A program made the translations under genes and the position numbers. Shown piece by piece: positions 4,739 through 37,451 of a stretch of 37,451 bases of DNA. How positions within the stretch are numbered: the first letter of the stretch is position 1; each line of letters starts with the position of its first letter. Source of the stretch: a virus; IMG/VR virus record IMGVR_UViG_3300010218_000026; one strand, given 5' to 3'. The notes beneath the pieces were generated by a model, which had not been told where the DNA came from, did no database searches, and saw only the letters and a program-made list of their open reading frames with translations.

Positions 4739-4740
4739 GA

Positions 4741-4974: not shown

Positions 4975-5405
4975 AGCACAGCCCGCACATGCCCGACGAT
5001 CGCTTCGAACTCATCGAGTGCGACACGTTCGGCGTTGGCGAGCTTCGCGCGGAAGGCTGCGATCTTCGCTTCGAGTAGCATCAGATGCGATTCGCGCGGG
5101 AGTTCGTCACCAGCTTCGGCTCCAGTCGCTTGCGAGCCAGAGTTGACCGCATTCGCATCGGAACTGGTCAAGGGGGCGCTCGAAGAGATTCCCGGGACGA
5201 GAGAGCCAGGCGTTCCGGTATCGAAGTTTGGGGCGTCAACCACCGGAGCAGCGTTCACCAGCACGTTTCCAGTGACGGGCATAACAACAGCGACGCCACT
5301 CAACGCGCCGCTAAACGTATCGCCGTTCTGGATGGTGCCAGGCTCTGTGCTGCTCGGCGCTGCGTCGCTCATCTGTGCTGCTGCTTCTGCAATCGGATCA
5401 CTCAT
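4971..5405 (-). CDS. Hypothetical protein (144 aa), first gene of the late operon
   Basis: GGAG lies 7 nt upstream of the ATG at 5405. The N-terminal half is low-complexity A/S/G/P/V-rich and the C-terminus is helical. Confidence 0.6.
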   Translation of the reverse strand: MSDPIAEAAAQMSDAAPSSTEPGTIQNGDTFSGALSGVAVVMPVTGNVLVNAAPVVDAPNFDTGTPGSLVPGISSSAPLTSSDANAVNSGSQATGAEAGDELPRESHLMLLEAKIAAFRAKLANAERVALDEFEAIVGHVRAVL

Positions 5406-19478: not shown

Positions 19479-19694
19479 ATGAAAGTCAGGTTGGATGAAT
19501 GGCTCAAGCGTGAATTCGATCCGCCGCCGGCTATCCGCACTGCTCGCCTGTGGATCAACGCAGGGAAAATCTATCCGGCACCGGTAAAGGTTGGCCGGTC
19601 GTACTATGTTGAGCAGAACGCCGTTTTCAATGACGGAACCGCGCGCCCTTCTCTCGCCCACAGGGTATTACAAAAACATGGCCGCACGTCCTAG
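19479..19694 (+). CDS. xis: Excisionase
   Basis: 71 aa. KVRLDEWLKREFDPPPAIRTARLWINAGKIYPAPVKVGRSYYV fits the lambda-type Xis pattern. Its 3' end overlaps int. Confidence 0.75.
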   Translation: MKVRLDEWLKREFDPPPAIRTARLWINAGKIYPAPVKVGRSYYVEQNAVFNDGTARPSLAHRVLQKHGRTS

Positions 19695-20763
19695 AATTCG
19701 CCGCCGAGCAAACTGGCCGGACAATCTGTATGAACCGCGCCCAGGCTATTACACATGGCGCGACCCGATCAGCAAAGAGACGCATATTCTCGGTCGCATG
19801 CCTCTCGCCCAAGCGATCCACGAAGCACAGGAGGCTAATCTGGCGCTCGTCAGCCTGAAGCCGAAGATGACGCTTGCCGAGCGCCTCAACTTGCGCAAGG
19901 AAACAGTAAATGACCTTCTGCTAAAAATGCCGACCCGAGGAGCAGACAGCACCATTCGAAGCCGAAAATACTACGATGCTTACATAAGCAAGTGCATTGG
20001 ATCTGTCCCATGCGCAGAGCTGACAACGAAGCACATCGCGGACATGCTAGAGCAACTGATCGATGCAGGGAAAGCCCCATCTGCCCATAACATTCGCACA
20101 CGTCTTGTTGCCATCTGCAAGCGAGGCGCTGCGCTAGGTTGGATAACCAGCGGAAATCCGGCAGCCAACACAGAGCAGGAAAGGCTAATCGTCAAGCGGC
20201 GCCGGCTGCGTGGGATCGAGGAATTTAACGCGATCTACGAGAAGGCGCCAGAGGTATGCGACTGGCTGCAAAACGCCATGCTGCTTGCCCTTGTCTCAGG
20301 ACAGGATCGTTCTACCTGCGCACGGTGGGAGCGCGCATCAATAAAGGATGGAATCGCAACCGCGTTCCGCAAGAAGACCAAGGTATATATCGAGATCCCG
20401 ACTTCTCTGCGCATGGATGCGATCGGCATGTCACTCGCTGACGTGATCGCGCGGTGCAGATCGACTGGCGTCGTCAGTAAATATCTGATCCATCACGTCC
20501 GAAACAAGGGCGGCGCAAAGAGCGGTCAGCCTGTCAAGATCGACTCGCTCACCCGAGCATTTGCGGAAGCGCGCGAGCTGGCCGGAATCACTGGCGACGA
20601 TGCACCGACCTTTCATGAGATTCGAAGCCTCGCCAAGCGGCTCTATGAAAAGCAGGGAGGCATCGACACCAAGGCATTGCTTGGTCACATGACAGAGACC
20701 GCCGCCGATCTGTACGCAGACAGCCGTGGAATCGAGCCGATCCGCGTCAAAATCGGCGCCTGA
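19678..20763 (+). CDS. int: Tyrosine integrase (lambda-type)
   Basis: Start trimmed to MAARPRIRRRANWPDNLY (arm-binding N-terminus). C-terminal catalytic motifs FHEIRSLAKRLY and LLGH...TAADLYAD (R, H-x-x-R, Y). Confidence 0.92.
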   Translation: MAARPRIRRRANWPDNLYEPRPGYYTWRDPISKETHILGRMPLAQAIHEAQEANLALVSLKPKMTLAERLNLRKETVNDLLLKMPTRGADSTIRSRKYYDAYISKCIGSVPCAELTTKHIADMLEQLIDAGKAPSAHNIRTRLVAICKRGAALGWITSGNPAANTEQERLIVKRRRLRGIEEFNAIYEKAPEVCDWLQNAMLLALVSGQDRSTCARWERASIKDGIATAFRKKTKVYIEIPTSLRMDAIGMSLADVIARCRSTGVVSKYLIHHVRNKGGAKSGQPVKIDSLTRAFAEARELAGITGDDAPTFHEIRSLAKRLYEKQGGIDTKALLGHMTETAADLYADSRGIEPIRVKIGA

Positions 20764-21079: not shown

Positions 21080-21259
21080 ATGAACGATCAGCCGCCCCTT
21101 TACATCAAGATTGTCGTCCGGTCCGCGGGCGCAGTGTCCGTCGCCTCCATCCTATGGATGCTGTCAGGCGCGCAGATCCCGACCGAGACATGGATGATCA
21201 GCGGCGCCGGCATCCTCCTGTGGGTGTGGAGTGAATGGGACTGGTGGAAGCGCAAATGA
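21080..21259 (+). CDS. Small two-TM membrane protein (59 aa), coupled to the acyltransferase
   Basis: There are two hydrophobic helices, and the stop overlaps the acyltransferase ATG (ATGA). The start is uncertain (a GTG at 21020 is also in frame). Confidence 0.5.
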   Translation: MNDQPPLYIKIVVRSAGAVSVASILWMLSGAQIPTETWMISGAGILLWVWSEWDWWKRK

Positions 21260-22353
21260 AAAACCGAAACTTCGGGCTGGACGTGGTTCGCATGTTCGCC
21301 ATCCTGCCGGTGCTCGCCGTGCACTACTCCGCGTTCGCGCTCAAGGATGTGCCGCAACTGATCTACGTTACCGGCGATCTTGGCGTCGAGATATTCTTCG
21401 CGCTGAGCGGGTTCCTGATCGGCGGGATTATCCTGCGCGACTTCGAGCGCGGCTTTTCGTGGCGCGTCAGCCTCAATTTCTATGTGCGCCGGTGGATGCG
21501 CACGCTGCCGCTCTACTACGTCTTCTTCGTGGCATCGGCATTCGTCACCATTTACGGGCTCACGCTGGACAAGGTGTGGTCCGCGAAGTGCCTCGCTTAC
21601 CTCCTGTTCCTGCAAAATCTCGCGTGGCCGATGCTGGCCCAGTGGTATCACGAGAGCTGGTCACTGGCCATCGAAGAGTGGTTCTATCTGATCTTCCCGG
21701 CCATGTTCGCGGTGCTCGTCGGCGTGCCGGCGCGCGCGCGGATTCTGGTTATCGCGGTGACCCTCATCGTCGTCCCGCTCGCCCTGCGCATATGGTTCTA
21801 CGATCCGAGCACGGATTTTGACCTGTACGTGCGCCGCATCGTCGCGCTGCGGCTCGACGCCATTGCCTTCGGGATTCTGGCTATCTGGGCCGTGCGGACG
21901 TTCCCGGCCGGCATGCGTTACTGGAAGAACGTGATCGGCCTCGCGGGCGCTGCTGGCGTGTTCGCAACCATCCAGATACTGATGGGCCGGATTGACGTCG
22001 GCGTGTTCTTCCTGCGCACGTTTTCTTTCTCGCTCGCCTCGGCGTCCTTCGCGGCTATTGTTGTGTGGGCGTATTTCCAGTCATGGGCGCATCTGGAAGC
22101 GGGCGGGGAATCGAAGGTGATCGGCTGGTTCAGCACCCGGAGCTATGCCCTGTATCTGTGTCATGGCAGCGTCGTGCGGACCATGCTCCGGCATGGATGG
22201 TTTGCCGAACGCCCGGTCGTCTCGTTTCTAATCTTCGCGACCGCGACGTTGGTATTGGCAGAGGCGGCGCACCGGCTGATCGAACAGCCATTCATGCACC
22301 GCCGGCCACGAGAGATTCACACGGCGATTAGCGGACGCGTCGTGCGCGAATAA
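21256..22353 (+). CDS. Acyltransferase family 3 (Oac/OafA-like O-antigen or glycan acyltransferase)
   Basis: The N-terminus NFGLDVVRMFAILPVLAVHY..DLGVEIFFALSGFLIG is the acyltransferase_3 signature. The protein is a multi-TM protein located between attP and the tail end of the late operon, as in Sf6 oac. Confidence 0.85.
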   Translation: MKNRNFGLDVVRMFAILPVLAVHYSAFALKDVPQLIYVTGDLGVEIFFALSGFLIGGIILRDFERGFSWRVSLNFYVRRWMRTLPLYYVFFVASAFVTIYGLTLDKVWSAKCLAYLLFLQNLAWPMLAQWYHESWSLAIEEWFYLIFPAMFAVLVGVPARARILVIAVTLIVVPLALRIWFYDPSTDFDLYVRRIVALRLDAIAFGILAIWAVRTFPAGMRYWKNVIGLAGAAGVFATIQILMGRIDVGVFFLRTFSFSLASASFAAIVVWAYFQSWAHLEAGGESKVIGWFSTRSYALYLCHGSVVRTMLRHGWFAERPVVSFLIFATATLVLAEAAHRLIEQPFMHRRPREIHTAISGRVVRE

Positions 22354-24718: not shown

Positions 24719-26878
24719 TTAAGGCGTATAGAACTGGTTCAGATACCAGATCGACGCGTATTTGAAGAACTTATAAATCGAAGATGCGGTAGTTGGTTGA
24801 TTCACACTGTTGTGAATCGAAATGCCCAAACCATTGACGTACGTCGTGTTCGCGTTGCCGGACTGAACTGTGAATTCCTGCCCGTCGAATCCCCCGACAA
24901 AGTTGGTTAGGTTCGTCGCGCCTCCGTTCACAACGGTTGCCGCATCGAGCCCCATAATTAACGGGGCCGTCCCGGCGATGGCCGGAAGTGGAACTGGGTG
25001 TTTGTTTTTCCTGAATGACCAGCCAACATAATTCGCGCTCGGCCCCGACGCCTGGAACGCGTTACCGTTGACGCCAGTCAATTGCGAAAAATCGTTGTCG
25101 CAAAACTCGCAATTCAGGTAGGTCAGGTTGCTGCGAAACCCGATATTCAGGCCGAAAATCGTATGCGGCGTCGGGTTGAAGTCGATCACCCGGTTGCCGT
25201 TGATCTTGATGTTTTCGTATAGCGCAGTCGGGATACTTGCGGTCAACGTCGCATCGACCCAGATGCCGTCTTGAGATCCATTCCCGGCGAAGTTGCAGGA
25301 ATCGATGATGTTGTCCACCACCGTCGCATTCGCGAGGTTCCCGCCGAGGTCAGTGCCGAGCTTGATGCCCTGCTGGGAAGAGAACCGGATGTAGTTGTTG
25401 CTGACGATGTGATTGGAGCTTACGTCGATGCCAAACAGGCCCGCGTAGATGACGACGTTGGAATCGAATACGAGCCCCTCGTTCGCACGTGTTCCATCCT
25501 GTCCGAGACCGATCCCGTCATTGCCTGCGTTGCGGTTGTCGTAGCAGATGTTGTTGGAGACCGTGATGTACTGATCCCCTGCGCCGACCACTATCATGAA
25601 ACCGTTCTCTGCCGCGCTGCTGACGATATGGGTAGGAGGCGTGGCGCGGTTGACGTAGTTGCCCTCGATGACAACGTACTGCGCCACCGTGAAATTGCTG
25701 ATGTTGGAGTTGTAGCCCGTCTGGATTGCGCTCGAGCCGCAACTGATGATGGAGTTGTCCTTGATCTCCCCATTCGTCGAGCAATAGGCGGTGATGCCGC
25801 CCCACCCGATATTTTCCAGCCGGTTGCGGTTGAACCTGTAGTTCGACACGCTGCCGGTCGCCGGATTGAGGATGATGCCGTTGTAGATGAAGTTGCGGAT
25901 ATAGCAGTTTTCGACAAACAGGCCGGACACCGGCAAGGTATTCGAAACCGCTCCGAAAGCCTGCGCGGCGTTGTTCGCGATATTCCCGTCCATGCCGAGA
26001 TCACGAATGCCACAGTTATTGCCGTTCAGGATAAAAACTGCATTAGGATTGAAGCCGTTGAAGCCGGTCGCATTCGACGGGACAGTAACTGTCGTGGCGT
26101 ACATCGAATCGCCGCAGATCGTCACGTTCGACGGAACCACGATTGACGATGAAACCACTGTCGTGCCATGCGGGATAAACACCGTACCGCCGCCCCTCGA
26201 TGAGGCATAGACGACCGCCGCGCGAATGGCGCTGGTATCGTCCGTGACGCCATCGACCTTGCCGCCAAAGCGCGGGTCAGTCACGTCGATGAAGTTGTTG
26301 ATGCGGTTGTAGAGCGCGCTGCCGCTGGAAACAGAGGCGTCGGTCACTGAGCCGGGGTTGGGAGTGCCGATCGCGATGGTTGTCCCGATCTTGACGTTGA
26401 CCTCTTGCACGCCCACCGGGATCGGACTGTTGAACGTGAGCGTCGTCCCTGAAACCGACATCTGGTCGTCGGCCTGATATGCAGCGTCGAAGAACACCCA
26501 CATGTTCGCCGAAGCGCCCGGCGCGATCGGAAGGGTCAGCGTTGTCGTCACCCCCGGAGTAAAGTTCGTGCCGCTGACATACTTCGCATCCGTGATGTTG
26601 CCGACCAGACCAGAATTGGAATCCTCCGTTACCTGATCCCAGACCGTGACACCCGACGAGTCCTTAACGATCTGGCGATAAACGCCCGAGCCCCAGATCA
26701 GTGCCTGACCGCGGCTGTCGAGCGTGACAGGATTGGTGTTGGCAATCGTGCCTGCCGCGTCCTGATATGTCGGCTTCGGGTTCAGCGTGCCGGGGAAATA
26801 GAACCCCACTGTGCCGCTTGCCAAGGGAAGCCCGTTCTGGTCAATGAACTGCGACTTCGCGTTCGGGAGGATTTGCAT
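24719..26878 (-). CDS. Tailspike / depolymerase with right-handed beta-helix (pectate-lyase-3-like)
   Basis: 719 aa. FIDVTDPRFGGKVDGVTDDTSAIRAAVVYASSRGGGTVFIPHGT is the Pectate_lyase_3 N-terminal signature. Many N/G/I-rich beta-helix rungs follow. Confidence 0.85.
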   Translation of the reverse strand: MQILPNAKSQFIDQNGLPLASGTVGFYFPGTLNPKPTYQDAAGTIANTNPVTLDSRGQALIWGSGVYRQIVKDSSGVTVWDQVTEDSNSGLVGNITDAKYVSGTNFTPGVTTTLTLPIAPGASANMWVFFDAAYQADDQMSVSGTTLTFNSPIPVGVQEVNVKIGTTIAIGTPNPGSVTDASVSSGSALYNRINNFIDVTDPRFGGKVDGVTDDTSAIRAAVVYASSRGGGTVFIPHGTTVVSSSIVVPSNVTICGDSMYATTVTVPSNATGFNGFNPNAVFILNGNNCGIRDLGMDGNIANNAAQAFGAVSNTLPVSGLFVENCYIRNFIYNGIILNPATGSVSNYRFNRNRLENIGWGGITAYCSTNGEIKDNSIISCGSSAIQTGYNSNISNFTVAQYVVIEGNYVNRATPPTHIVSSAAENGFMIVVGAGDQYITVSNNICYDNRNAGNDGIGLGQDGTRANEGLVFDSNVVIYAGLFGIDVSSNHIVSNNYIRFSSQQGIKLGTDLGGNLANATVVDNIIDSCNFAGNGSQDGIWVDATLTASIPTALYENIKINGNRVIDFNPTPHTIFGLNIGFRSNLTYLNCEFCDNDFSQLTGVNGNAFQASGPSANYVGWSFRKNKHPVPLPAIAGTAPLIMGLDAATVVNGGATNLTNFVGGFDGQEFTVQSGNANTTYVNGLGISIHNSVNQPTTASSIYKFFKYASIWYLNQFYTP

Positions 26879-26892
26879 GTGGGCCTCAAAAC

Positions 26893-26918
26893 AAAAAAGC
26901 CACCTCTTTGGGTGGCCT
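26893..26918 (-). terminator. Rho-independent terminator (second of a tandem pair) just upstream of the tailspike gene
   Basis: The minus strand reads aggccacc-caaaga-ggtggc followed by tttttt. Confidence 0.7.
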
Positions 26919-26924
26919 ATAATG

Positions 26925-26948
26925 AAAAAGCCCTCACAGGGAGGGCTT
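26925..26948 (-). terminator. Rho-independent terminator (first of a tandem pair) after the ejection-protein genes
   Basis: The minus strand reads gccctc-cctgt-gagggc followed by ttttt. Confidence 0.7.
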
Positions 26949-27046
26949 CGGAGATTTCAATGAATAGTGATCAGTTCTGGAGTACGGTATTCAGGACACT
27001 GGTTTTCTGTCTGCTTGTCGTCGTTATCCCCCCGATATACCGTCGG

Positions 27047-29377
27047 CTATTGCGGGCGTGTGACCGCATTGACGAGCGCATTGCCCGCCGGCGCGGCGAG
27101 TGGGACCCCGTACTTGGAAAGCGCATTCCCTACTGGGACCGCGAACCCGGGGCGCGCCGTAAGTAGGGCTTGCGCGGTCTTCTGCCCCATCGCTGTATAA
27201 GGAAGCGCCCCGACGCCCATCGCAGCAGCAAGAGGCGCGGTATAGCCAGGCACGAAAGCCTGCCCAAGCGCAGCCGGTCCCATCAGAGCTAGTAGCGCGC
27301 GCCCTGGAGTGCCGGAATCAGGATATTTCGCCCCGAGGACCGACTGTCCCGCGCTAGAAAAGTCCTGCATGAGCGCATTGCCGGTCGCCGTTGCCCCCTT
27401 GCCTGCCGACTTATCGGCGCCGCGCACAGCATTGTTCAATTGGGCGGCTGTAAAAACGCCTTCATTGTTCATTGCACCTTGTGATCCGGCCGCCGCGCGC
27501 AAGCGCACGAAGTTGGCATAAGCCGCATTGGCCTTCGCGAGGTCTTGAACAGCATCCGAGGCGTTGTTGCGCGGCAATGACTGCTCGACAAGATTTTTCA
27601 CCTCGCCGATTGCCTGCCCGAGCTGCTGATTATCGAATGACGGATCGCCAGATAGCCCCCGAGAGATTCGGCCGAGTTCGCTCTGTACGCCCTTCAGCGT
27701 TGCGCCATCCATTTCGCCCTGCGGCGATAGTTTGCCGACGATCTGGTTTTTAACCACGTTCATGAACTGCGACTGCTGGGCCGGTGGCAGGTTCTGCGCC
27801 AGCCCAGCAAGGTTGCCGAGATCCGACTGGAACTGTGGGTCAGCCTTAAACGTCAGCTTGGAAAGCGCGTCGTCGTAGGCATTGCTGATCGTCTTTTGAA
27901 CTGCTGCCACGCCTTCATTACCGATCGGTCCGTCATAGGTCTGCCCGAGCGGCTTCAACACTTCGTTGTAGGTCGCCTTATTGAACCCCTGAACTGCACG
28001 CTGCTGTCCGTTCTTGATCATGTCCCCAAGAAATGGAACGCTGGTCAATTTGGATTCTGTGCGCGCGGCTGCGCCTCCGAGAATCTGACCTGGGGTAAGC
28101 GGTACGCCGGCATCCAGCAATTTTTGTTGCGCGGCACCGACAGTCGGCGAGATAGCGCCACCAATTGCACGCATGAGCGGGTTCGCAACTCCTCCAACGA
28201 TCGCCCCAGTTCCCGCCTGCTGGAGCTTCTGGCTCGCGTATCCTTTGGACGTATCCGTCACGGGCTCGATCAGGCTATTGGCAGCCCCGGATAGTGCGCC
28301 GGCGCCGATCCCGCCAAGCAATCCACCACCGGTCGGCATCGCAGCAGCCAACGGAATGGAGCCGATAGCGTTCCCAACGCCGCGGCCTACATCTACCCCT
28401 GTCCCGCCATTTGCGGCGCGTTGAGCGGCATATTGAGCATCCTGAGACTGGATGGTCTGATCGATCTGCGGGACAGCCGCGTTCAGATCTTTCGTGAACT
28501 GGGCATCGGGCGCGATCTTGTTGGCAAGCCATGCACCGCCATGCGCAAGGGACTGGACGCCTCCCTTGATGGCATCGCCGATACCCATCGTGACCGAGCC
28601 GGGAGCCTGCCACGGCTGACCAGTCACGGTTGGTTGAGCAGCATCCGGTTGGGGCGCTGCTGCCTTCGGTGCATCCTTGGCCGACATCACGCTATTCGCC
28701 ATCGCGAGCAGAGGATCGTCAGCGGGCTGTGTCGATGCCGTGGCAGACGTGGTCGACGAAGAGGCGGCTGGCGAGCCCGCCATGACGCCGTGAGCCATAT
28801 CCAGCAAGGGATCGCCTGTGGTCGACGACTGCGCGGGCGTGGGTGCTGACTGCTGCGGTTTTGCTTGCGGCATGATCTGTTGTCCAGTAGCCGAGATGAC
28901 GGGCGCGCCCATCTGCTGCGGTCTGAGTTCGGCAGCGTTGGCAGTCCCTGAGATAGCCGACGCAATCGCGTCCCCGAATTTCCTCACCATTCCAACGGCG
29001 CCAGCCAGCTTGTTTGCATAAGCCGAATCTTCGGCATAGCCGCCTGCCTTAAGCGCTTTGCCGTATGCAGACGCATCAGAACCCGCTCCTACGGCTCCCT
29101 TGTAGTTGCTGCTGATCAGGTTCGCGAAGTCGTTGCCGAACGCCTGCGGGTTCGCATAGGCGCGGTACTGGTCATTTGAGCCAGTCTGGTTATCCGTCGC
29201 GGCGACGCCCGGCCCCTTGATGTTGCCCAGATTGTTCGTGCCCGGGATTACCGACTTGCCCCATCCCGTCTCAAGTCCCCATTGCCCGAGCAGCACATCA
29301 GGAGCGACACCGATCCTCTGGCCGACGCTCGCCGCGACCGGCGCATATTGCTGGATGAACCCTTGAATGTCCGGCAT
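27047..29377 (-). CDS. Internal virion / ejection protein with N-terminal FlgJ-type glucosaminidase (peptidoglycan hydrolase) domain
   Basis: Start trimmed to the ATG at 29377 (TGATG junction). LLGQWGLETGWGKS..NNLGNIKG..YRAY..GGYAEDSAYANKL matches the glucosaminidase (PF01832-type) pattern. The remaining roughly 600 aa are A/G/Q-rich. Confidence 0.75.
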   Translation of the reverse strand: MPDIQGFIQQYAPVAASVGQRIGVAPDVLLGQWGLETGWGKSVIPGTNNLGNIKGPGVAATDNQTGSNDQYRAYANPQAFGNDFANLISSNYKGAVGAGSDASAYGKALKAGGYAEDSAYANKLAGAVGMVRKFGDAIASAISGTANAAELRPQQMGAPVISATGQQIMPQAKPQQSAPTPAQSSTTGDPLLDMAHGVMAGSPAASSSTTSATASTQPADDPLLAMANSVMSAKDAPKAAAPQPDAAQPTVTGQPWQAPGSVTMGIGDAIKGGVQSLAHGGAWLANKIAPDAQFTKDLNAAVPQIDQTIQSQDAQYAAQRAANGGTGVDVGRGVGNAIGSIPLAAAMPTGGGLLGGIGAGALSGAANSLIEPVTDTSKGYASQKLQQAGTGAIVGGVANPLMRAIGGAISPTVGAAQQKLLDAGVPLTPGQILGGAAARTESKLTSVPFLGDMIKNGQQRAVQGFNKATYNEVLKPLGQTYDGPIGNEGVAAVQKTISNAYDDALSKLTFKADPQFQSDLGNLAGLAQNLPPAQQSQFMNVVKNQIVGKLSPQGEMDGATLKGVQSELGRISRGLSGDPSFDNQQLGQAIGEVKNLVEQSLPRNNASDAVQDLAKANAAYANFVRLRAAAGSQGAMNNEGVFTAAQLNNAVRGADKSAGKGATATGNALMQDFSSAGQSVLGAKYPDSGTPGRALLALMGPAALGQAFVPGYTAPLAAAMGVGALPYTAMGQKTAQALLTARPGFAVPVGNALSKYGVPLAAPAGNALVNAVTRPQ

Positions 29378-30807
29378 CAGAACGCCCCGAGCGCCTTCAT
29401 GGCCTGATAGTCCTTCGTCCACTGCTGAAGCTTTCCTTCAGTCTTCAGCTTCTGCATGGCGGCCTGTTGCGCGGCGGGGTCACCGAGCGAGCGAACATAG
29501 GACACGTCGGGATTGAACGACTGGTTCCACTTCGTTTCGAACTGCGGGAGCGCGCTCGTGTTGTTGCCGTTCTGCGCGAGGAAGTTGGTGGTTGCCTGCT
29601 GACGGTCTAGAACAGCCTGTTGCAGACCCTTCACGTGCTGGATCGACTCGAGCAACGCCGGCGCGTTCATATGTGCCGGGTCTGGTTGGCCTGCCTTCGC
29701 CGCGGCAAGACGTGAATCACTGCCTGATAGACCGAGCGAGGATGCAGCCTGATCGGCGGCGCTGTTCAGATAGTTCACGAGAAGCTGATTGTTCTTGACC
29801 GAATCCGATCCGGCCTGAATGCCGAACGTGTTCAGCAGTGCGGGGACATTCAGCGCCGCGGCTGCGCCCTTGCCTGCGATCGTGCCTTGCAGAGCCTGCG
29901 CCGCCATGTCGTAGGTCTGCATGAGCGGCTTGGCCTGGCTTGCGGCCTGCTGAAGCGAGCTATAGCGTTGACCGGCAGCATCAGCGATACCCTGCGCGCC
30001 CATTGGGGGAGCCGTCTGATAGCCGCCGCCTTGCTGCTGCGGAACCTGACCGGAATCCATTTGGCCCTTCGTGTACGTGACCTGCTGGCCGCCCTGGTTG
30101 ATCGTGACCCCGGGCGCAAGTGCTTCACTCCTGGAGAGACCGTTCTGGACCGTATAGCCGACCGTGCCGACGCCGCCACCAGCCGCTAGCGGATTCTGAT
30201 TTACCGCAACAGTCGCCGGACCTGTGTTGACCTGCGCATACTGCGGCAGCATCGCGTGTAGCTGCGTCTCGCCGCTGAGTGCCGACATGTAGTGCTGCTG
30301 CACCCAGCCGCGCAATGCCTGCGGATCTTGCGGCATCGACTGCATTTCAGCCTGATACACCTGCGGCGTGATCGCACCGGCCTGCAATTGCGTCGTGGCG
30401 AATCCCTGAACGTCCTGCGGAGACAGATCGGGTTTCGTCAAAAGACTGCCGAGGCCCTGACGCAAACCGCTTTGCGCCTTGATCGATTGATCAAGTTGGC
30501 CGGTTTGCAGAGTCTGTTGCTGTTGCTTCTGTGTATTGATGCCCTGAATGACCTGTGGCAGGTTGTACGCGGCGGCTGGGTCCTGGCTAAGGATGCCGAC
30601 GAGCTTGTTATTGTCTACCTGCCCGGTCGTCGGGTCAGTTGCCTGCTGATAGGCGGCGGAGGTGGCGCGGTTGGCGTCGAGTTGCTGTTGCTGCGCGAGG
30701 CCGCTGGCATTGAGTGCGCGGAACTGCGCAACGGATAGCGCCTGCTGAAGCGGATTGATAGGCTTCGGGGCGTTCGCGTTCAGGGCGATTGATGGATCGA
30801 TGGGCAT
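29377..30807 (-). CDS. Q-rich ejection / internal virion protein (476 aa)
   Basis: Low-complexity Q/A/G-rich protein, placed between two other ejection-type proteins (analogy to P22 gp7/gp20/gp16). Confidence 0.6.
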   Translation of the reverse strand: MPIDPSIALNANAPKPINPLQQALSVAQFRALNASGLAQQQQLDANRATSAAYQQATDPTTGQVDNNKLVGILSQDPAAAYNLPQVIQGINTQKQQQQTLQTGQLDQSIKAQSGLRQGLGSLLTKPDLSPQDVQGFATTQLQAGAITPQVYQAEMQSMPQDPQALRGWVQQHYMSALSGETQLHAMLPQYAQVNTGPATVAVNQNPLAAGGGVGTVGYTVQNGLSRSEALAPGVTINQGGQQVTYTKGQMDSGQVPQQQGGGYQTAPPMGAQGIADAAGQRYSSLQQAASQAKPLMQTYDMAAQALQGTIAGKGAAAALNVPALLNTFGIQAGSDSVKNNQLLVNYLNSAADQAASSLGLSGSDSRLAAAKAGQPDPAHMNAPALLESIQHVKGLQQAVLDRQQATTNFLAQNGNNTSALPQFETKWNQSFNPDVSYVRSLGDPAAQQAAMQKLKTEGKLQQWTKDYQAMKALGAF

Positions 30808-30816
30808 TTTTGTCCT

Positions 30817-31575
30817 TTACACCGTGAAGCCATATCCATTGCTGCCGGCGGCCATGCCGGCGCTACTTGGTGCCGCTGCAGCGCTCGCATTGTTCTTCAA
30901 CAGGCCATATGTAAGTGCGCTATTGCCGATCCCATTCAGACCACTCGCCAGAGCATTTGCACTGCCGATCGTTCCGGCCGCCTGCGCGTTCGCTCCGCTC
31001 GTGAGCGTGTTTCCAATGTTGCCGACCGCCTGCGCTCCGAGAGAACCATTCGTCGCCGCCGCGTTCTGGCCGCTGCCAACGATGTTCGTGAGCCGGTTGA
31101 CGTTGTTCGCCGCGCTGCTGTAGTTCGTGTTGAACGTCTGCAACGCGCGGTTGAACACATCGTTGTACGTTGAATCGGCCAGCCCCGTCGCATAGCTCGC
31201 GGCACCCTTCATCGCAGCACCAGAGACGCCAAGCCCCCGCGCGGCCGCGCTGTTCTGCACCGCTTTCAGACCTTGCTGCTGCGTGAACTGATAACCGGGC
31301 GCCGACATGGCATCGGCGGTATTCGGCGCAGTGAACTGCTGCGTCAGCATCGGGTTAGAAAGCGCCGTCTTCAGCGGATTGATATAGCTCGCGCCCAGAT
31401 CCATGTATGGCTTCAGATTTTGCTGCGTCTGTTGCCATTGATCGTTTTGCAAGTCCGCCGAATATTTCGCCGCGTCCGACTGCGTATTTGCCGCGCTCTT
31501 TGATGCGCTGGAACTCATGGCGCTGGATGCCACGCCCCCGACGACTGCTGCGCCGGCTACCGCTGCTGCGACCAT
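30817..31575 (-). CDS. A/S/N/G-rich ejection / internal virion protein (252 aa)
   Basis: Hydrophobic N-terminus and low-complexity composition. The call rests on position only. Confidence 0.55.
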   Translation of the reverse strand: MVAAAVAGAAVVGGVASSAMSSSASKSAANTQSDAAKYSADLQNDQWQQTQQNLKPYMDLGASYINPLKTALSNPMLTQQFTAPNTADAMSAPGYQFTQQQGLKAVQNSAAARGLGVSGAAMKGAASYATGLADSTYNDVFNRALQTFNTNYSSAANNVNRLTNIVGSGQNAAATNGSLGAQAVGNIGNTLTSGANAQAAGTIGSANALASGLNGIGNSALTYGLLKNNASAAAAPSSAGMAAGSNGYGFTV

Positions 31576-31578
31576 GAT

Positions 31579-32037
31579 TTAATCCCCCAGCCACTTTTCG
31601 TAGGTAGTCTCGACAGGTTGGAAGTCGAGAAACTTGAACAATGCAGACGCGTCATGCTGAACTTTGCTGCCGATCGCCCACCGCCTGACGCCGCGGCGCT
31701 TCAGTTCCTTTTCGACGAAACGGAACATGCGCACGCCAGCGAGCCCAGTCCGTTTGTCCTCGCGCACGAAGAAAATGTCGGGCGAACATGTCAGGCAGTC
31801 GCGGTAATGCAAACCCGGCGCGATGAAGCAAACGAAGTACGCAACGATCTCGCCGCGCTCGCGCCCGATGACCATCATCAGAGAGCCGTCAAGCTCCCGC
31901 GCGCGGTAGACCTCGACCATCGGATCGAGCGGCACACCGTGATCCTTGTGCGTCGAGATTTCGCCGTAATGCTTGCGCAACAGCGGCAGCAACTCGGCAT
32001 AGACGCCAGAGAACGGCTCGATACTGAACGTGATCAT
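31579..32037 (-). CDS. GNAT-family N-acetyltransferase (152 aa)
   Basis: Start trimmed to the ATG at 32037 (ATGA overlap with the dioxygenase stop). Motif A-like FFVREDKRTGLAGVRMFRFVEKELKRRGVRRW. Confidence 0.65.
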   Translation of the reverse strand: MITFSIEPFSGVYAELLPLLRKHYGEISTHKDHGVPLDPMVEVYRARELDGSLMMVIGRERGEIVAYFVCFIAPGLHYRDCLTCSPDIFFVREDKRTGLAGVRMFRFVEKELKRRGVRRWAIGSKVQHDASALFKFLDFQPVETTYEKWLGD

Positions 32038-32615
32038 CGCGAAGTCCGAATGTCGATGACCATAGAAACGCGGTCGTCCGAACTGTTGTTGATGACCTCG
32101 TGAACCTGGCTGTTGTCGAACCAGAAGCATTCGCCAGTGATCATGTTGATCTGCTCGTCACCAGCCTTCAGCACAGCGCCGGGAAGTCCATGCAGCACGA
32201 TATGGAAGCGCGTGTAATAGCTCGTCTGCTCGGGCGTGTCCGGGTGCGGAAAGATGCGGCCGCCGGGACAAATCTTGTTGATCATCACGCGGCCAAGACG
32301 CTCACCGCCGACGCGCGCCATCAGATTCATGACGAGCGTCCGCGCTTCATGCAGGACCTTGTACGCGGGATAGTCGATCGCCTCGTACTGGTCGTATCCG
32401 GCCAACTGGTTCTGTTTGTACAGTTCGATCTGTTCTTCCGTCAGCCCTTCGACCTTCTCCGGGAAGCGCAGCATGATCGTCTCTGTTTCGCCGAACGGAC
32501 CTTGCGGGTAGTGGCGAAGAAAAGTGTCCTCTTTCCAGAGATCGGGACGACGGCGGATAGCCAGCATCAGCGGATTGACATCAACGCCGTTTGCGAGGAA
32601 GTGGAAGTTTTTCAT
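32034..32615 (-). CDS. Aspartyl/asparaginyl beta-hydroxylase-like Fe(II)/2OG dioxygenase (cupin, 193 aa)
   Basis: PGGRIFPHPD (H-x-D), RFHIVL, and FWFDNSQVHEVINNS..RVSMVID (distal His) follow the order typical of the Asp_Arg_Hydrox family. The ATG abuts the upstream TAA. Confidence 0.65.
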   Translation of the reverse strand: MKNFHFLANGVDVNPLMLAIRRRPDLWKEDTFLRHYPQGPFGETETIMLRFPEKVEGLTEEQIELYKQNQLAGYDQYEAIDYPAYKVLHEARTLVMNLMARVGGERLGRVMINKICPGGRIFPHPDTPEQTSYYTRFHIVLHGLPGAVLKAGDEQINMITGECFWFDNSQVHEVINNSSDDRVSMVIDIRTSR

Positions 32616-32948
32616 TTAGCTCGGCACGTATTCAATGCCGCTGACGTTCAGCGTGCAGGCGAGGCCATCGGCGAAAATCTGCGTGCTGGGCTCGAGCTTG
32701 TGATTGATGACTTCGGGAATCGAGACCGTCACGCCGGCGCCGACAACCTTGCTGCCGATCTTCGTCGGCGAGCCCGCTGTGCCGCCGTTCGGCACCTTGT
32801 AGATATTGACCGTCACCGGCGATCCAGTGGGATTCGACACGCTCACCGCGTGGACAGCGCCATAGGTCGATGTTGGCGTCGTGTAGTAGGCGACAGCAGA
32901 GCCCGTCAGGGTCTGCCCTGCCACCATTTCCCGATATTTCGTCGTCAT
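32616..32948 (-). CDS. Hypothetical small beta-rich protein (110 aa)
   Basis: GAGG SD upstream. ORF-track ORF. Confidence 0.6.
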   Translation of the reverse strand: MTTKYREMVAGQTLTGSAVAYYTTPTSTYGAVHAVSVSNPTGSPVTVNIYKVPNGGTAGSPTKIGSKVVGAGVTVSIPEVINHKLEPSTQIFADGLACTLNVSGIEYVPS

Positions 32949-32951
32949 GCT

Positions 32952-33458
32952 TTAGCCTCGCGCATAGACTTTTGACACGCCGACCGGAATGGCCGAAGTG
33001 AAGGTGATCGTGTTTCCCGATATGCTGTACTGGTCCGTGGCCTGGAACGACGCATCGAAGTGCACGAGAACTGAAGCCTTCGACGCGTAGACCTTTGAAA
33101 GCGTCAGCGCTGTCGTAGTGCCGGGCGTGAAGTTCGTTCCGGCGGTAAAAATGTCCTCGACCGGATCGGATGCAAAGGCAGGTATCGCCACAGCCTCCGG
33201 AGGAAAGTCAAATGCTGCTGGTTGCCAAGCAACCGGTGCAGGCGCGTCTTCAGCGGGCGCGAACAGCGGATAGATGGCCTGAGCGTCGATCAGTGGCGAG
33301 TAATCGATCTGCGTGCTGGGTGTAGGAGTACCACCGCCGCCTGAACGCTGGAACAGCGCAAGCAGGAACGCCCACCATACCGGGCTGATTGGCTCGGGTC
33401 GACCGACGAGAAACGACGCGCTCGGCTGCGGGATATTCGCGTTGGTCGCCTCGGTCAC
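32952..33458 (-). CDS. Tail-associated protein (168 aa) sharing a C-terminal domain with the tailspike
   Basis: The GTG start overlaps the gp10-like stop (GTGA). The C-terminal 65 aa (GTNFTPGTTTALTL...SISGNTITFTSAIPVGV) are paralogous to tailspike residues of about 95-165. Confidence 0.6.
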   Translation of the reverse strand: MTEATNANIPQPSASFLVGRPEPISPVWWAFLLALFQRSGGGGTPTPSTQIDYSPLIDAQAIYPLFAPAEDAPAPVAWQPAAFDFPPEAVAIPAFASDPVEDIFTAGTNFTPGTTTALTLSKVYASKASVLVHFDASFQATDQYSISGNTITFTSAIPVGVSKVYARG

Positions 33459-34879
33459 GTGCGCGCCCTCGACACGTCAACCCATGCGCCATTCAATGCA
33501 GTTTTCACCGGCGCCGACCACGACAGTTCGAACACGCGGTCACGCGCATAGCCGAGCCGCTGATACTGGATCGATGTCAGATAAGCACCAACCTTCCCGA
33601 GCGATCCCTGAATGTAATTCCCCCAACTGCGCCCGCGGTCATCGCTCCAGCGAAGTCTGATTTCCGGCTCTGCTGAGTCATCGGGTAGCCCATTGCCGAC
33701 TTCCATATCCGCGATGAACTGGCGGAACATGACGCGGTTTCCGTCGCCACCCAGGATATGCGGGAAGGCGCGGATATACTCCATCGTCACGCCGTTATCG
33801 GTGTAGGCGTTCTGGTCAAGGGCATAGACCGCGCCCGTTTCCCAATCGCCGACCAGATTGCGGCCGTTGTTGAATGAATGGCAGTTCATCCGGTGCCGGC
33901 TCAGTGTGCCATCGTCTTCCAGATAGGCTCGCTGATGCCATTGCTGCGTCACGACGTCAAAGCACCAAGTGGCATTCGCAGTCGGGAACGTCAGCACATA
34001 GAAGGCGTGGCCGCCCTGCTGATACGAAAATCCTATCGCGTCATCCACGCGCGAATACTTGGAAAATTCCTGCTCGATCGAATGCGTTGAGATGCGCTCG
34101 GCCATGTAATTGCGGCCGGCGAAAACGACGTTCTGACCTTGCAGGTCTTTCCCGAGCCAGAATAGCGCCAGATCGATCTTCGCGACCGAGTGTTTCGCCG
34201 CGCACCCGTGCTCGATGAACACGCCAGGCATGCGGCCAAACGTAAAATCCGTCGCGCCGGTGTTGTACCAGACCTCGGTCGTCAGTTCGCCGAACAGCCA
34301 GATTTCACGGTGCATCACGGCGAGCGTGACCAGGTTGTCGGAATAGGTCGATTTCGACGCGATGTCGAGCGGATCGAACGCCACGCTTCCGAACAGCGAG
34401 ATAAAGAACTGCGTAGTCCCTGGCCGATTGAACAGGAAATAGCCGTCAACCAGATCGACCTTATCCGCGCCGTAGAACGCCGGGTCGGAACACAGCGTCA
34501 TCACATTCGATGACAGGTTTATCGTGAACCCTGCCGCAGTGCCGTCAACGATGAACACATCGGTTCCGTTGTCCACCATCGATACCGGACCAGAACGCGA
34601 CGCCAGAACGCCCATGAGCGTGTAGACGTTCGTCGAACTGACCGAATACACGTTCTGCCCGACTGCCTCGTAACGGTTGCCATTGCTCGCCGTGTAGATG
34701 CAGCGGCTTTCGCCTGCGTCGGGCGGGGTCGATACCAGCGTCAGGCCCGGCGTCGGGTAGTAGGTGAACGGACACGGTGCGTCTTGAGGATTCGCCTCTG
34801 CGTACAGGTTCACGCAGCGCTGAGCCTCGGCAATAACGCTGCGCGTCTGGTATGCGCCGGTTGTGAGCGGGACTCGCAT
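33455..34879 (-). CDS. Tail hub protein, P22 gp10-like (474 aa)
   Basis: Size, position after the gp4-like gene, and beta-propeller-like blocks (EIWLFGELTTEVWYNTG, HAFYVLTFP, VFELSW) resemble P22 gp10 as I recall it. Confidence 0.6.
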   Translation of the reverse strand: MRVPLTTGAYQTRSVIAEAQRCVNLYAEANPQDAPCPFTYYPTPGLTLVSTPPDAGESRCIYTASNGNRYEAVGQNVYSVSSTNVYTLMGVLASRSGPVSMVDNGTDVFIVDGTAAGFTINLSSNVMTLCSDPAFYGADKVDLVDGYFLFNRPGTTQFFISLFGSVAFDPLDIASKSTYSDNLVTLAVMHREIWLFGELTTEVWYNTGATDFTFGRMPGVFIEHGCAAKHSVAKIDLALFWLGKDLQGQNVVFAGRNYMAERISTHSIEQEFSKYSRVDDAIGFSYQQGGHAFYVLTFPTANATWCFDVVTQQWHQRAYLEDDGTLSRHRMNCHSFNNGRNLVGDWETGAVYALDQNAYTDNGVTMEYIRAFPHILGGDGNRVMFRQFIADMEVGNGLPDDSAEPEIRLRWSDDRGRSWGNYIQGSLGKVGAYLTSIQYQRLGYARDRVFELSWSAPVKTALNGAWVDVSRART

Positions 34880-35598
34880 CAGTTGCTCGAGTTGTCGCTG
34901 TAGATGTTGTAGCGCGATTTCGTCATCAGTCCGCGCGGCATCGTCAAAGACGGAATCTGCGTGTTCATGCGCTTGATCACCCGCTTCGCGTTCATCGCGA
35001 GCCGCACCAGCGAGGGCGGCGGCTCAAGCTGATAGGACGGGCACAGGTAGATCCCGAGGTTGTAGCGCAGCGCGGCGAGATACGGCGGCGGCAGATTGAT
35101 GACAGTGGCAGCCGTGGGAAGCTGCGGCAGCGTCTCCATCGTCACGATGTGCAGCTCGTAGCTGCTGTTCGGCACCGGATAGAGGAACAGGTTGCCTAGC
35201 GGAAATGCCGAGTCATAGAACGCATACTCGGGGAACGACGACAGCGTTTTGAGGCTGATGCGCGAATAGTCCTCGCGCGCGTCGATCATCGTGATTCGGT
35301 AATCGACAGCACTTCCCGCGCCGCTGCTTTGCAGGCGAGCGTATGCCGCGTTGATCTTGACCGGGCGCGTGACATTGAAGTCGCCACCGAGACCGACCGT
35401 GTAGGAAACTGACCCGTTCGCCTGATGCGCGGTATCGACCAGGTGATAGACGCTCAACCGCTCCGCATCCCACTGGCCGAGCATCATGTTCAGCGTCGCG
35501 AGCGCGTCGGCCGTATCTTCGGCCGAAATGGCCTGCCCGATGCCGACCGCGCCGATATCCTTCAGCGCCATCATGAACAGATCAGTTCCGGTCGTCAC
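34879..35598 (-). CDS. Head-to-tail adaptor, P22 gp4-like (239 aa)
   Basis: DLFMMALKDIGAVGIGQAISAEDTADALATLNMMLGQW parallels P22 gp4 DLVRAALRKLGV...DAVDDLEAMMAEW. GTG start with a GTGA overlap. Confidence 0.6.
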   Translation of the reverse strand: MTTGTDLFMMALKDIGAVGIGQAISAEDTADALATLNMMLGQWDAERLSVYHLVDTAHQANGSVSYTVGLGGDFNVTRPVKINAAYARLQSSGAGSAVDYRITMIDAREDYSRISLKTLSSFPEYAFYDSAFPLGNLFLYPVPNSSYELHIVTMETLPQLPTAATVINLPPPYLAALRYNLGIYLCPSYQLEPPPSLVRLAMNAKRVIKRMNTQIPSLTMPRGLMTKSRYNIYSDNSSN

Positions 35599-35927
35599 AC
35601 TGCCTCCAGCGCCGTGCGGATCTTGTCAGCCGACCAGCGCTTGTCGATCTTCACGCCCTTTTCCTCGGCGATCTGGATCAGTGCCGCACGTTCGTCGGTC
35701 TGCTCGGGTTCAAGCGCGGCCTCTTCTTCACCGCTGTTCACGAGCTTGCCGCCGACCCACTTCGGGTAGTGCTGGAACGTTTCGGAATCGACATGCACTT
35801 TCGGCGGTACATGCTTGTAGTCCGACCAGCCTTCACCGAGCGCTTCGAGTTCCTCGCGTGAATGCACAAGGCGTTCTTCCTCGCCTTTGCGCGTCCACTT
35901 CGGGAACTCCTGATATTCGTAGGGCAT
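35595..35927 (-). CDS. Hypothetical protein (110 aa) with two (F/Y)PKW motifs and a C-terminal HeH/SAP-like helix pair
   Basis: Start trimmed to the ATG at 35927 (GGAG 6 nt upstream). The longer ORF-track version would overlap the coat gene by 70 nt. Confidence 0.6.
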   Translation of the reverse strand: MPYEYQEFPKWTRKGEEERLVHSREELEALGEGWSDYKHVPPKVHVDSETFQHYPKWVGGKLVNSGEEEAALEPEQTDERAALIQIAEEKGVKIDKRWSADKIRTALEAV

Positions 35928-35947
35928 GAGCCACTCCAGAAGGATGC

Positions 35948-35982
35948 AGGGGCCGCACGTTATTCCGAACATGACGGCCCCT
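35948..35982 (-). promoter_or_regulatory. GC-rich hairpin just downstream of the coat gene (attenuator or mRNA stabiliser candidate)
   Basis: aggggccg-(19 nt loop)-cggcccct, an 8-bp stem with no T run. Confidence 0.35.
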
Positions 35983-35989
35983 TGTTCAA

Positions 35990-37192
35990 TCAGCCGGCGA
36001 TACGGCAGGCGAGTTCCTGATAAATCGGACGCCATCCGTACAAAACGTCGATACGGCAAGGGAACGTGTCCGTGCCAATCGCGTACTGACGCACGATCCG
36101 CATGGAGATGCCCTTGTGATTGCGGCGGCCGGCGAAGTCCACGCCTTCCGGCATTTGCAGGTCAGCCGTGGCGAGCGTGAAGGCGTTCTTGTGGTACGCC
36201 AGGTTCACGGTGTACTGCGTGCCCGCGGCAACGTCCCACGTGACGACAGCAGCGTTCGCCGGGCCGGCCGAGACCGTCTGGTACTGCTGGTTCGACGCGG
36301 CCGTGTTGATCGCCGGGAAGATCGAGAGCGTTGCATTGCCCGAGCCGTCAGCCGTCGCCGCAGCCGTCACGGTGAACTGACGCAGCACGCGCGTGGACTG
36401 ACGCGATTGCGGGTTCACTGCGAAGACGCCAGCGATGGTGAACGTGTCGCCCGCGGCAACCGTGCCAGCAGCGCCGAGGCCGGTCACGAGCAGCGTGCTA
36501 CCCGTTTGACCTGCGCCCGAGACCGTGCCGTTGGTGCGCGTGCCTGCGGTCGCCTGACGAATGTTCTGGTCCATGCCGATGTCGAAGCCCAGCGCCGGAA
36601 CGAAGATGCCGCTTTCGTACTGGTCACTGATTGGGCGCGGCGCGTTGAAGAGACCTGCGGCAGCCTTGACCATCGAGCCGTTTGCAGCCGGGTCCCACAC
36701 GACCGTACGCTGACCGTCGCGCGGCGTGGCTTCCTGATCGAGGCGCGTGCCGGCAGCGAGCAGCGTCGCGATGTCGTTCGGCGTGGTGCCTGCGGTGCCG
36801 ACCTGGTTCGCGACCGACGTGTACAGACCGAGGCCGTCGAAGTCGATCTTGTTCGCGATGGTCGCCATTGCCGGTTTCAGGTAGCGATCGGCGAAGTCGT
36901 CGATGTTCAGCGTGAGTTCCTGCGACGAGAACGTGAAGTCAACGTGGAACTGCGTGTCGAGCGTGACCGGCACGACGGTTTCCACCACGTTTTCGATCGC
37001 GAGCGCGGGGCCAGTCGTACCGACGAAACGCACCGGCTTGCGCACGTTCACGGTCGAGCCGACCTTTGCGCCCTTGACGGCAAACTCGTCGCTGTATTCC
37101 TTGTTGACCCGGCCCGAGAAGGCCAGGTTGTTTTCAAGGATCATCAACGACTTGTCGAGGATCTTGCTGGTATTGAGAAGGGTATTAGCCAT
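35990..37192 (-). CDS. Major capsid protein (P22 coat gp5-like)
   Basis: 400 aa. The N-terminus MANTLLNTSKILDKSLMILENNLAFSGRVNKEY is typical of the P22-coat family. It follows the scaffold gene with a GAGG SD. Confidence 0.85.
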   Translation of the reverse strand: MANTLLNTSKILDKSLMILENNLAFSGRVNKEYSDEFAVKGAKVGSTVNVRKPVRFVGTTGPALAIENVVETVVPVTLDTQFHVDFTFSSQELTLNIDDFADRYLKPAMATIANKIDFDGLGLYTSVANQVGTAGTTPNDIATLLAAGTRLDQEATPRDGQRTVVWDPAANGSMVKAAAGLFNAPRPISDQYESGIFVPALGFDIGMDQNIRQATAGTRTNGTVSGAGQTGSTLLVTGLGAAGTVAAGDTFTIAGVFAVNPQSRQSTRVLRQFTVTAAATADGSGNATLSIFPAINTAASNQQYQTVSAGPANAAVVTWDVAAGTQYTVNLAYHKNAFTLATADLQMPEGVDFAGRRNHKGISMRIVRQYAIGTDTFPCRIDVLYGWRPIYQELACRIAG

Positions 37193-37201
37193 TTTTCAGC
37201 C

Positions 37202-37451
37202 TCATTTGGAGCCGTGTTTCTTCCACCACGCGATCTGCTCTGCGGCCGAGGCGAATTCCTCAGGCTCGACAGGCGACGACCGTCCGCCGATCGGGTTGAT
37301 CGGTGCGGGGGCGTTGGAAACGGGTTTGGGTTTCGCCTGACCGACCGTCGTCTCGAGACGGGCCAGTTCAAGCGCCATGCGCAACGGAGGAAGGGACAGC
37401 AAGCGTTCAGCGACTTCCGGGTTCTGGCCGAGGTGATGAAGCACCTTGTGG
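37202..37451 (-). CDS. Scaffolding-like protein, 3' part (same gene as 1..528 via the circular junction)
   Basis: The frame is open to the window end, and the last 55 nt duplicate 1..55. The C-terminus is ...EEFASAAEQIAWWKKHGSK. Confidence 0.7.
   Translation of the reverse strand, partial: HKVLHHLGQNPEVAERLLSLPPLRMALELARLETTVGQAKPKPVSNAPAPINPIGGRSSPVEPEEFASAAEQIAWWKKHGSK
37397..37451. repeat. Terminal direct repeat, copy 2 (identical to 1..55)
   Basis: Exact 55-nt identity with the window start. Confidence 0.95.

Follow-up and report, generated by a model that had tools for sequence, protein, structure and literature searches.

A PF05118-Family Hydroxylase Gene Overlapping a GNAT Gene in the IVP-A Slot of a Podophage Late Operon

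In the viral stretch IMGVR_UViG_3300010218_000026 of IMG/VR (37,451 nucleotides; the whole stretch is called the window below), two enzyme-like genes, one for a 193-residue hydroxylase of Pfam family PF05118 and one for a 152-residue protein with a predicted GNAT fold, are embedded in an unbroken late operon between a gp10-like tail hub gene and the genes for three ejection proteins. The GNAT gene occupies the slot of internal virion protein A (IVP-A), that is, the slot of T7 gene 13 and P22 gene 14; going by position and fold, it is a described core morphogenesis gene and not an inserted extra. The GNAT half of the pair is already described as a kind, and the new element is the hydroxylase only. 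The pair is widespread, being found in hundreds of environmental contigs and in prophages of many proteobacterial genera. As an overall statement, we lean toward the view that the two genes encode a late-expressed enzyme pair that acts on phage proteins, probably the ejection proteins.

Gene Junctions and Conservation of the Pair

All three junctions that a first-pass annotation had proposed for the pair are present on the minus strand. The hydroxylase ATG (32615..32613) abuts the TAA (32618..32616) of the upstream 110-residue gene, the hydroxylase TGA (32036..32034) overlaps the GNAT ATG (32037..32035) in an ATGA at 32037..32034, and the next gene begins, with an ATG at 31575, 3 nt past the GNAT TAA (31581..31579). 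The ATG at 32037 is taken as the true GNAT start, and a longer, 183-residue open reading frame (ORF; 31579..32130) as an upstream extension of it, because the homologues are 150–153 residues long. When the region 26500..37451 was scanned, no sigma-70-like promoter was found throughout, and the sole convincing terminator hairpins come after the last ejection gene (26949..26897, minus strand), in agreement with the earlier view that the pair has no flanking promoter or terminator and does not look like a moron.

The pair had also been expected to recur as a conserved neighbourhood, and it does so: after de-duplication of the fetched loci, the two genes are adjacent in 168 of 178 distinct hydroxylase loci, and in 132 of these 168 adjacent pairs the GNAT start codon overlaps the hydroxylase stop. 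Within IMG/VR, a GNAT gene lies immediately downstream in every one of the 44 loci retrieved via the hydroxylase, and a hydroxylase gene immediately upstream in every one of the 80 loci retrieved via the GNAT; by profile scan, at least 568 viral stretches encode a relative of the hydroxylase. The clade of Limnohabitans phage DC33, whose proteins are 33–40% identical to those of the window, has the pair with a 4-nt overlap in 35 of 37 loci; of the other two, one (L217) has a GNAT ORF that runs into the end of the hydroxylase gene and one is truncated by the contig border. Pseudomonas phage PfAn1 likewise has the two genes side by side and is fully syntenic up to and including the ejection genes, and the pair is present in 32 of 39 prophage loci in bacterial genomes from more than 15 genera (including Achromobacter, Paraburkholderia, Caballeronia, Ralstonia, Janthinobacterium, Massilia, Acinetobacter, Rhodanobacter, and Hyphomicrobium). 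A megablast search of the locus against cultured phages gave no match.

Some of the records that carry the pair have odd labels. Two loci (L241 and L252, together with protein P0224) were binned as Patescibacteria/"Candidatus Paceibacterota" metagenome-assembled genomes and carry a phage module of betaproteobacterial type; one of them is 39 kb long, the size of a whole phage, and they are most likely phage contigs mis-binned into these assemblies. Limnohabitans phage DC33 itself (L002, PQ492659) is a tailed podophage with a 39-kb double-stranded DNA genome but is placed by the GenBank taxonomy in the Inoviridae, a family of filamentous single-stranded DNA phages. In view of the transmission electron microscopy and genome description in the DC33 paper, this label is evidently a record error.

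The locus is best explained as the head of the ejection-protein (i.e., internal virion protein) operon of a temperate P22-like podophage. The genes of the operon around the pair are as follows.

34879..35598: gp4-like adaptor, upstream of the gp10-like hub (PHROG and Pfam scans)
33455..34879, minus: gp10-like tail hub (head closure Hc3; phrog_578, 2.3e-114)
32952..33458, minus: small tail-associated ORF of 168 residues between the hub and the 110-residue gene (weak tail-fibre PHROG match only)
32616..32948, minus: 110-residue protein, function unassigned, directly upstream of the hydroxylase (phrog_20100, unknown function, 2.2e-5)
32034..32615, minus: 193-residue PF05118 hydroxylase (Pfam E = 5.8e-14)
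31579..32037, minus: 152-residue GNAT-fold protein in the IVP-A slot (phrog_1249, 1.4e-10)
30817..31575, minus: IVP-B, a P22 gp7-like ejection protein (phrog_598 "DNA ejection," 3.3e-34)
29377..30807, minus: gp20-like ejection protein, 476 residues, low complexity (position and size; synteny kept in related loci)
27047..29422, minus: gp16-like ejection protein, 791 residues, with an N-terminal glucosaminidase (FlgJ-type muramidase), last gene of the operon (PF01832, 2.1e-19; TIGR02541 FlgJ, 2e-11)

Of the two small ORFs, the 168-residue one varies or is missing among related loci, and the 110-residue protein is homologous to the ORF that precedes the hydroxylase in PfAn1 (E = 1e-6). The gp20-like protein has no family match in Pfam or PHROG scans. 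The annotated GTG start of the gp16-like gene overlaps the preceding gene by 46 nt, and the true start may be further downstream.

Beyond this operon segment, the genome encodes a portal, a large terminase, a major head protein, a tailspike, and an integrase. The genes for the large terminase (3240..4475, minus) and the portal (1083..3239, minus) lie at the start of the window, and a scaffold-like ORF and the major head protein gene lie at its end (35990..37451). Because the late genes at the two ends join into one operon on a circle, the window probably represents an entire phage genome in circularly permuted form. Just downstream of the tyrosine integrase gene is an O-antigen acetylase/O-acetyltransferase-like gene (phrog_3333, 7e-35; phrog_6705, 8e-21; 21235..22353 and 19591..20763 for the acetylase-like gene and the integrase gene, respectively, both plus strand). 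This is a typical position for a lysogenic-conversion moron, unlike that of the operon-embedded enzyme pair.

Catalytic Site of the Hydroxylase and Fold of the GNAT

The hydroxylase was expected to belong to the aspartyl/asparaginyl beta-hydroxylase family, and it matches PF05118 with 52.7 bits against a cutoff of 22.6 (E = 5.8e-14, residues 94–190); the same domain is present in all 120 hydroxylase homologues listed. An AlphaFold (AF2) model built from 38 homologues (pLDDT 91, pTM 0.88) has the double-stranded beta-helix fold, with 483 Foldseek matches in the PDB at E ≤ 1e-3, including PHD2 and AlkB. The nearest solved structures (TM 0.57–0.67) are L-proline cis-4-hydroxylase, human AspH, proline 3-hydroxylase, and a nucleoside-antibiotic hydroxylase. 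The H-x-D...H motif that had been read from the sequence is found at H124, D126, and H172, the predicted iron ligands, and these residues together with R182, predicted to bind 2-oxoglutarate (2OG), are invariant in the 38 close homologues and likewise in a set of 12 sequences that comes from phages of Pseudomonas, Limnohabitans, and spring water and extends to 31% identity. In a HMMER alignment, H172 and R182 align with the distal His and Arg of AspH; among the structural matches are several PDB entries of AspH R735 variants in complex with 2OG or its analogues. Judged by these residues, the protein is very probably an active Fe(II)/2OG oxygenase.

Compared with AspH, LpxO, and OlsC, which are also PF05118 proteins, the phage hydroxylase is alike in its beta-helix core and, by alignment with AspH, in its distal His and 2OG-binding Arg but is a minimal, soluble form of 193 residues, without tetratricopeptide repeat or membrane domains, and it has the canonical HxD...H carboxylate where human AspH has H-T-G at the first motif. 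Its best structural matches are to microbial hydroxylases of free amino acids (L-proline cis-4-hydroxylase, 4p7w; proline 3-hydroxylase, 1e5r), with TM 0.59–0.67 and E values down to 5e-10, and a weak sequence match to 1e5r also spans the catalytic core. The identity to these two enzymes is, however, only 16–19%, the phage protein is ∼90 residues shorter, and its context is a virion-assembly operon, not metabolism. A function of the LpxO type, which the first-pass annotation had brought in through the family, does not hold up, with a score of 15 bits against a cutoff of 500 for the NCBIfam LpxO equivalog (NF033391).

The 152-residue protein scores 14.1 bits against PF00583, below the cutoff of 20.7. 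Its assignment to the GNAT superfamily, which is made by predicted fold, nevertheless holds because it matches phrog_1249 "acetyltransferase" (1.4e-10), because PF00583 is passed by other members of the family (32.4 bits for L112, 28.8 for L113, and 24.0 for L002, and several close homologues have precomputed PF00583 matches), because a 14-sequence profile of the family matches acetyltransferases only among PDB sequences (E ∼1e-3 to 0.1), and because its AF2 model (pLDDT 93) retrieves viral N-acetyltransferases from BFVD at TM 0.73–0.85, including those of Vibrio phage VpV262 and Roseobacter phage CRP-4. The PF00583-type match that had been predicted is seen in homologues and not for the window protein, and of the earlier description as a GNAT with motif A, the family stands and the motif is only partly canonical (R96, G101). 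Eleven residues (H23, E26, P39, Y44, Y67, L76, H77, Y78, D87, R96, and K125) are invariant across sequences of 29–83% identity. In the Burkholderiales clade there is a longer invariant stretch, H77-Y78-x2-C81-x2-C84-x-P86-D87, in which H77, Y78, and D87 are family-wide and both Cys residues are not; the H77–D87 segment could serve for the substrate or, specifically in this clade, hold a metal or a disulfide.

The earlier statement that this position is free of enzymes in P22 does not stand: P22 gene 14 (151 residues; Pfam PF11039/DUF2824), which fills a slot described as acetyltransferase-like, is immediately upstream of gene 7, in the same place as the GNAT, and its T7 equivalent, gene 13 (138 residues; PF11090), lies between the genes for tubular tail B and gp14. 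The IVP-A slot holds a small non-structural gene whose product matches acetyltransferases by HHpred in phiRIO-1-like phages, T7 IVP-A matches acetyltransferases as well, P22 and epsilon15 possess standard IVP-A homologues, and T7 IVP-A, though needed for morphogenesis, does not stay in the virion (Hardies et al., 2016; PMC4819975). This last property weakens, for the GNAT, the idea from the first-pass annotation that the two enzymes might be co-ejected effectors. A Cobavirus GNAT at the same position has been equated with T7 gp13 (PMC6775973).

The late gene order of P22, 10-26-14-7-20-16, corresponds gene for gene to the order of hub, small ORF(s), 150-residue gene, and gp7-, gp20-, and gp16-like genes seen here, with the differences that an extra gene, the hydroxylase, stands just before the gene 14 slot and that the gp16-like protein bears an N-terminal muramidase domain. 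A phrog_1249 GNAT also stands by itself in Zobellviridae Vibrio phages, an oyster-associated phage, and a spring-water phage (L112–L114), with the hub or tubular tail B on one side of it and the large internal proteins on the other, and among the GNATs scanned this family is common to those of the Vibrio phages, Manatee Spring, PfAn1, and DC33. The window GNAT resembles the podovirus IVP-A proteins (T7 gp13, P22 gp14, and the GNATs of VpV262, SIO1, Cobaviruses, and Zobellviridae) in size (138–167 residues) and in having an acetyltransferase-like fold, and it is structurally close to the GNATs of VpV262 and CRP-4. For T7, P22, phiRIO-1-like phages, and Cobaviruses, no description exists of a hydroxylase that is placed before IVP-A and translationally coupled to it, as is the case here.

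Common descent of the GNAT with gp13 and gp14 is suggested by position, by one weak structural match, and by the published HHpred results. The structural match, at rank 43 of the Foldseek search of BFVD, is to a T7-like "host specificity protein A" of Citrobacter phage CR8 (E = 8.5e-5, TM 0.51/0.57). The window GNAT has no PF11090 or PF11039 match, and a large protein search with P22 gp14 returned only close DUF2824 relatives. Against the PDB, the P22 gp14 profile gives a marginal match to the PseH N-acetyltransferase (E = 0.09); its matches to designed "Cake" repeat proteins were discarded as artefacts.

Constraint, History, and Exceptional Loci

To describe constraint, identity to the window was compared gene by gene over 82 distinct loci that have the hub, both enzymes, and the gp7-like gene, and over the subset of 37 of these loci in which the hub is <60% identical. 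The median identities are as follows.

GNAT: 80% (82 loci); 71% (37 loci)
Hub: 74% (82 loci); 50% (37 loci)
Hydroxylase: 64% (82 loci); 61% (37 loci)
gp7-like: 61% (82 loci); 50% (37 loci)
gp20-like: 58% (82 loci); 31% (37 loci)

The best-conserved gene is the GNAT or the hydroxylase in 71 of the 82 loci. The identity of the GNAT co-varies with that of the hub (r = 0.78) and of the gp7-like protein (r = 0.82). Hydroxylase identity tracks the hub (r = 0.55) and the GNAT (r = 0.51) only weakly, compared with r = 0.95 for the hub and the gp7-like protein. Judged by these correlations, the GNAT behaves as a vertically inherited core gene, and the hydroxylase as an exchangeable accessory gene that is almost always kept at one site. 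The identity of the hydroxylase to the window is moreover bimodal in loci L004–L111, at either ∼85–95% or ∼45–62%, and uncoupled from that of the hub, as exemplified by one locus with a hub of 50% and a hydroxylase of 87% identity (L032) and another with a hub of 80% and a hydroxylase of 52% identity (L084). At the level of sequence comparison, this pattern indicates that hydroxylase alleles have been replaced by recombination at fixed flanks.

Among the loci in which the pair is not adjacent, two (L031 and L216) are contig-end truncations and one (L165) has a 310-nt insertion between the hydroxylase and the GNAT. In two spring-water/metagenome podophages (L003, 8863..10040, and L185), a hydroxylase gene without a recognisable GNAT stands directly upstream of a phrog_21132 "DNA ejection" protein. 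A 190-residue gene upstream of the lone hydroxylase of L003 was considered as a cryptic GNAT and rejected, having no family match and no GNAT-profile signal. The remaining exceptions of note are five Burkholderiaceae prophages with relocated copies, which are described below together with the other points that bear on function.

Possible Roles of the Pair

We propose that the hydroxylase gene was inserted directly upstream of IVP-A and would be translated with it through the ATGA overlap, so that both proteins would be made late, in step with the ejection proteins. In this view, the two proteins would serve, ahead of packaging, to modify a phage protein or to help in its assembly, and the gp7-, gp20-, and gp16-like ejection proteins encoded just downstream are the likeliest targets. 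The ejection proteins are the best candidates because their genes follow those of the pair and because the lone hydroxylases also directly precede an ejection gene; that they in particular are the substrates is nonetheless a tentative suggestion, held with clearly less confidence than the general statement that the pair acts on phage proteins. The GNAT may carry out acyl transfer, and the two enzymes may share one substrate. The phenotype of T7 IVP-A, which is essential and absent from virions, fits an enzyme or assembly factor that acts on internal proteins.

A number of observations weigh against this proposal. In the five Burkholderiaceae prophages mentioned above (L251, L253, L254, L255, and L257; from Caballeronia, Robbsia, and Paraburkholderia), the hydroxylase gene is on the opposite strand, between the terminase and scaffold/coat genes, and is directly followed by an HNH endonuclease gene (PF13392, 5e-15), with which it may form a mobile unit; in L251 this region is 3941..5085. 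Because of these copies, the hydroxylase can evidently function uncoupled from IVP-A and from the late-operon strand. The weak tracking of the hub and the GNAT by the hydroxylase, given above, points the same way. The closest structures of the hydroxylase include hydroxylases of free amino acids and nucleosides besides those of proteins, and the fold does not imply a protein substrate. Motif A of the GNAT (Q/R-x-x-G-x-G/A) is partly canonical, with R96 invariant, G101 mostly kept, and the central Gly not. As regards its identity as IVP-A, BLASTP of the GNAT against P22 gp14 and T7 gp13 found nothing, and hhalign likewise gave no signal when the 14-sequence GNAT profile was compared with gp14 or gp13 as single sequences or with a 22-sequence profile of P22 gp14.

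The five relocated copies are the only moron-like cases, and the pair is present in all 124 close loci. In three of the five prophages (L254, L255, and L257) there is a GNAT-like ORF just upstream of the portal gene. The small upstream ORF and the hydroxylase were considered as a travelling cassette, an idea that was dropped: the small ORF is homologous in PfAn1 but not in the relocated prophage copies.

An alternative reading makes the hydroxylase, alone or together with the GNAT, a host-directed or auxiliary gene, that is, a moron-like auxiliary metabolic gene (AMG), an anti-defence gene, or a modifier of the envelope or of host proteins, which would be a mere passenger of the late operon, unconnected with virion or ejection proteins. 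The separate history of the hydroxylase, with its two identity classes and r ∼ 0.5 with its neighbours, is in keeping with such a role, as are the five prophages with an opposite-strand copy beside an HNH endonuclease gene and away from the IVP genes; PF05118/2OG oxygenases are also common as stand-alone genes in many unrelated viruses, and the DC33 authors list the hydroxylase homologue as an AMG. We nevertheless regard this as unlikely, given that the gene stays at one exact spot in 168 of 178 loci, in most cases overlapping IVP-A by 4 nt, across lineages that are ∼33% identical, that it has no promoter or terminator of its own, and that even the exceptional loci remain within the morphogenesis gene block. 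The genuine conversion-type gene of this phage, the O-antigen acetylase-like one, adjoins the integrase gene instead, and the hydroxylase, at 15 versus 500 bits, is not LpxO.

A different possibility is that both proteins are non-catalytic chaperones or scaffolds with enzyme folds, which load the ejection proteins into the procapsid without any chemistry. T7 IVP-A is needed for morphogenesis and absent from virions (PMC4819975), Pfam describes PF11090 (T7 Gp13) as a "probable scaffold protein," and the degenerate motif A of the GNAT, along with its score below the PF00583 threshold, could be read in the same sense. What makes the idea improbable in our eyes is the complete Fe(II)/2OG site, invariant over deep divergence, which is hard to explain without catalysis, and in addition the invariant polar residues of the GNAT (H23, E26, Y44, Y67, H77, Y78, D87, R96, and K125 across 29–83% identity) and its standing as the most conserved gene of the module.

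Very improbable, in our estimate, is a lipid version of the same theme, in which the GNAT would be an N-acyltransferase that lipidates a membrane-inserting ejection protein and the PF05118 enzyme would hydroxylate the acyl chain. It draws on the inclusion of the acyl-chain hydroxylase LpxO in PF05118 and a weak match of the hydroxylase to LpxO, on one BFVD neighbour of the GNAT that is annotated as an N-myristoyltransferase-like domain while others are annotated as N-acyltransferases, and on the IVP-B homologues, which are membrane-inserting pore formers. There are analogies in OlsB/OlsC in ornithine lipids, in LpxO acting on lipid A, and in the activation of RTX pore-forming toxins by an acyltransferase. 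The hydroxylase fails the LpxO equivalog test, however, membrane segments are absent, the nearest solved structures are amino-acid and protein hydroxylases rather than lipid enzymes, and we know of no evidence of lipidated ejection proteins in any podophage.

Returning to an enzyme pair that acts on phage proteins, the coupling of a well-conserved GNAT to a catalytic-looking hydroxylase, these being the most constrained genes of the module, points to chemistry on ejection or tail proteins rather than to pure chaperoning. In its boldest form, which is speculative and which we consider rather unlikely to be correct as it stands, the IVP-A GNATs would be genuine transferases and, ahead of packaging, would activate podophage ejection proteins covalently, and in this large phage group the partner 2OG oxygenase would put a second modification on the same target by hydroxylating a residue or the transferred acyl group.

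Our literature searches found no paper that describes a pairing of a PF05118 oxygenase with IVP-A. The only paper found that mentions a homologue, the one on DC33, lists it (DC33 ORF8) as a metabolic gene (AMG) and does not remark on its context. If the hydroxylase is host-directed after all, the result would be a more ordinary one, yet it would correct the routine annotation of such genes as AMGs or as resistance-type acetyltransferases. Infectious particles require the IVP-A proteins (T7 gp13, P22 gp14) but do not contain them, and the pair gives an experimental handle on the role of these proteins, a question of decades' standing, with mass-spectrometric read-outs of +16 Da, +42 Da, or an acyl mass. 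Should covalent activation of the ejection proteins prove to be true, it would be the first enzyme-dependent post-translational maturation of a phage DNA-ejection apparatus and a functional analogue of the activation of RTX toxins by their acyltransferases, and it would explain how T7 gp13 and P22 gp14 can be essential and yet absent from virions.

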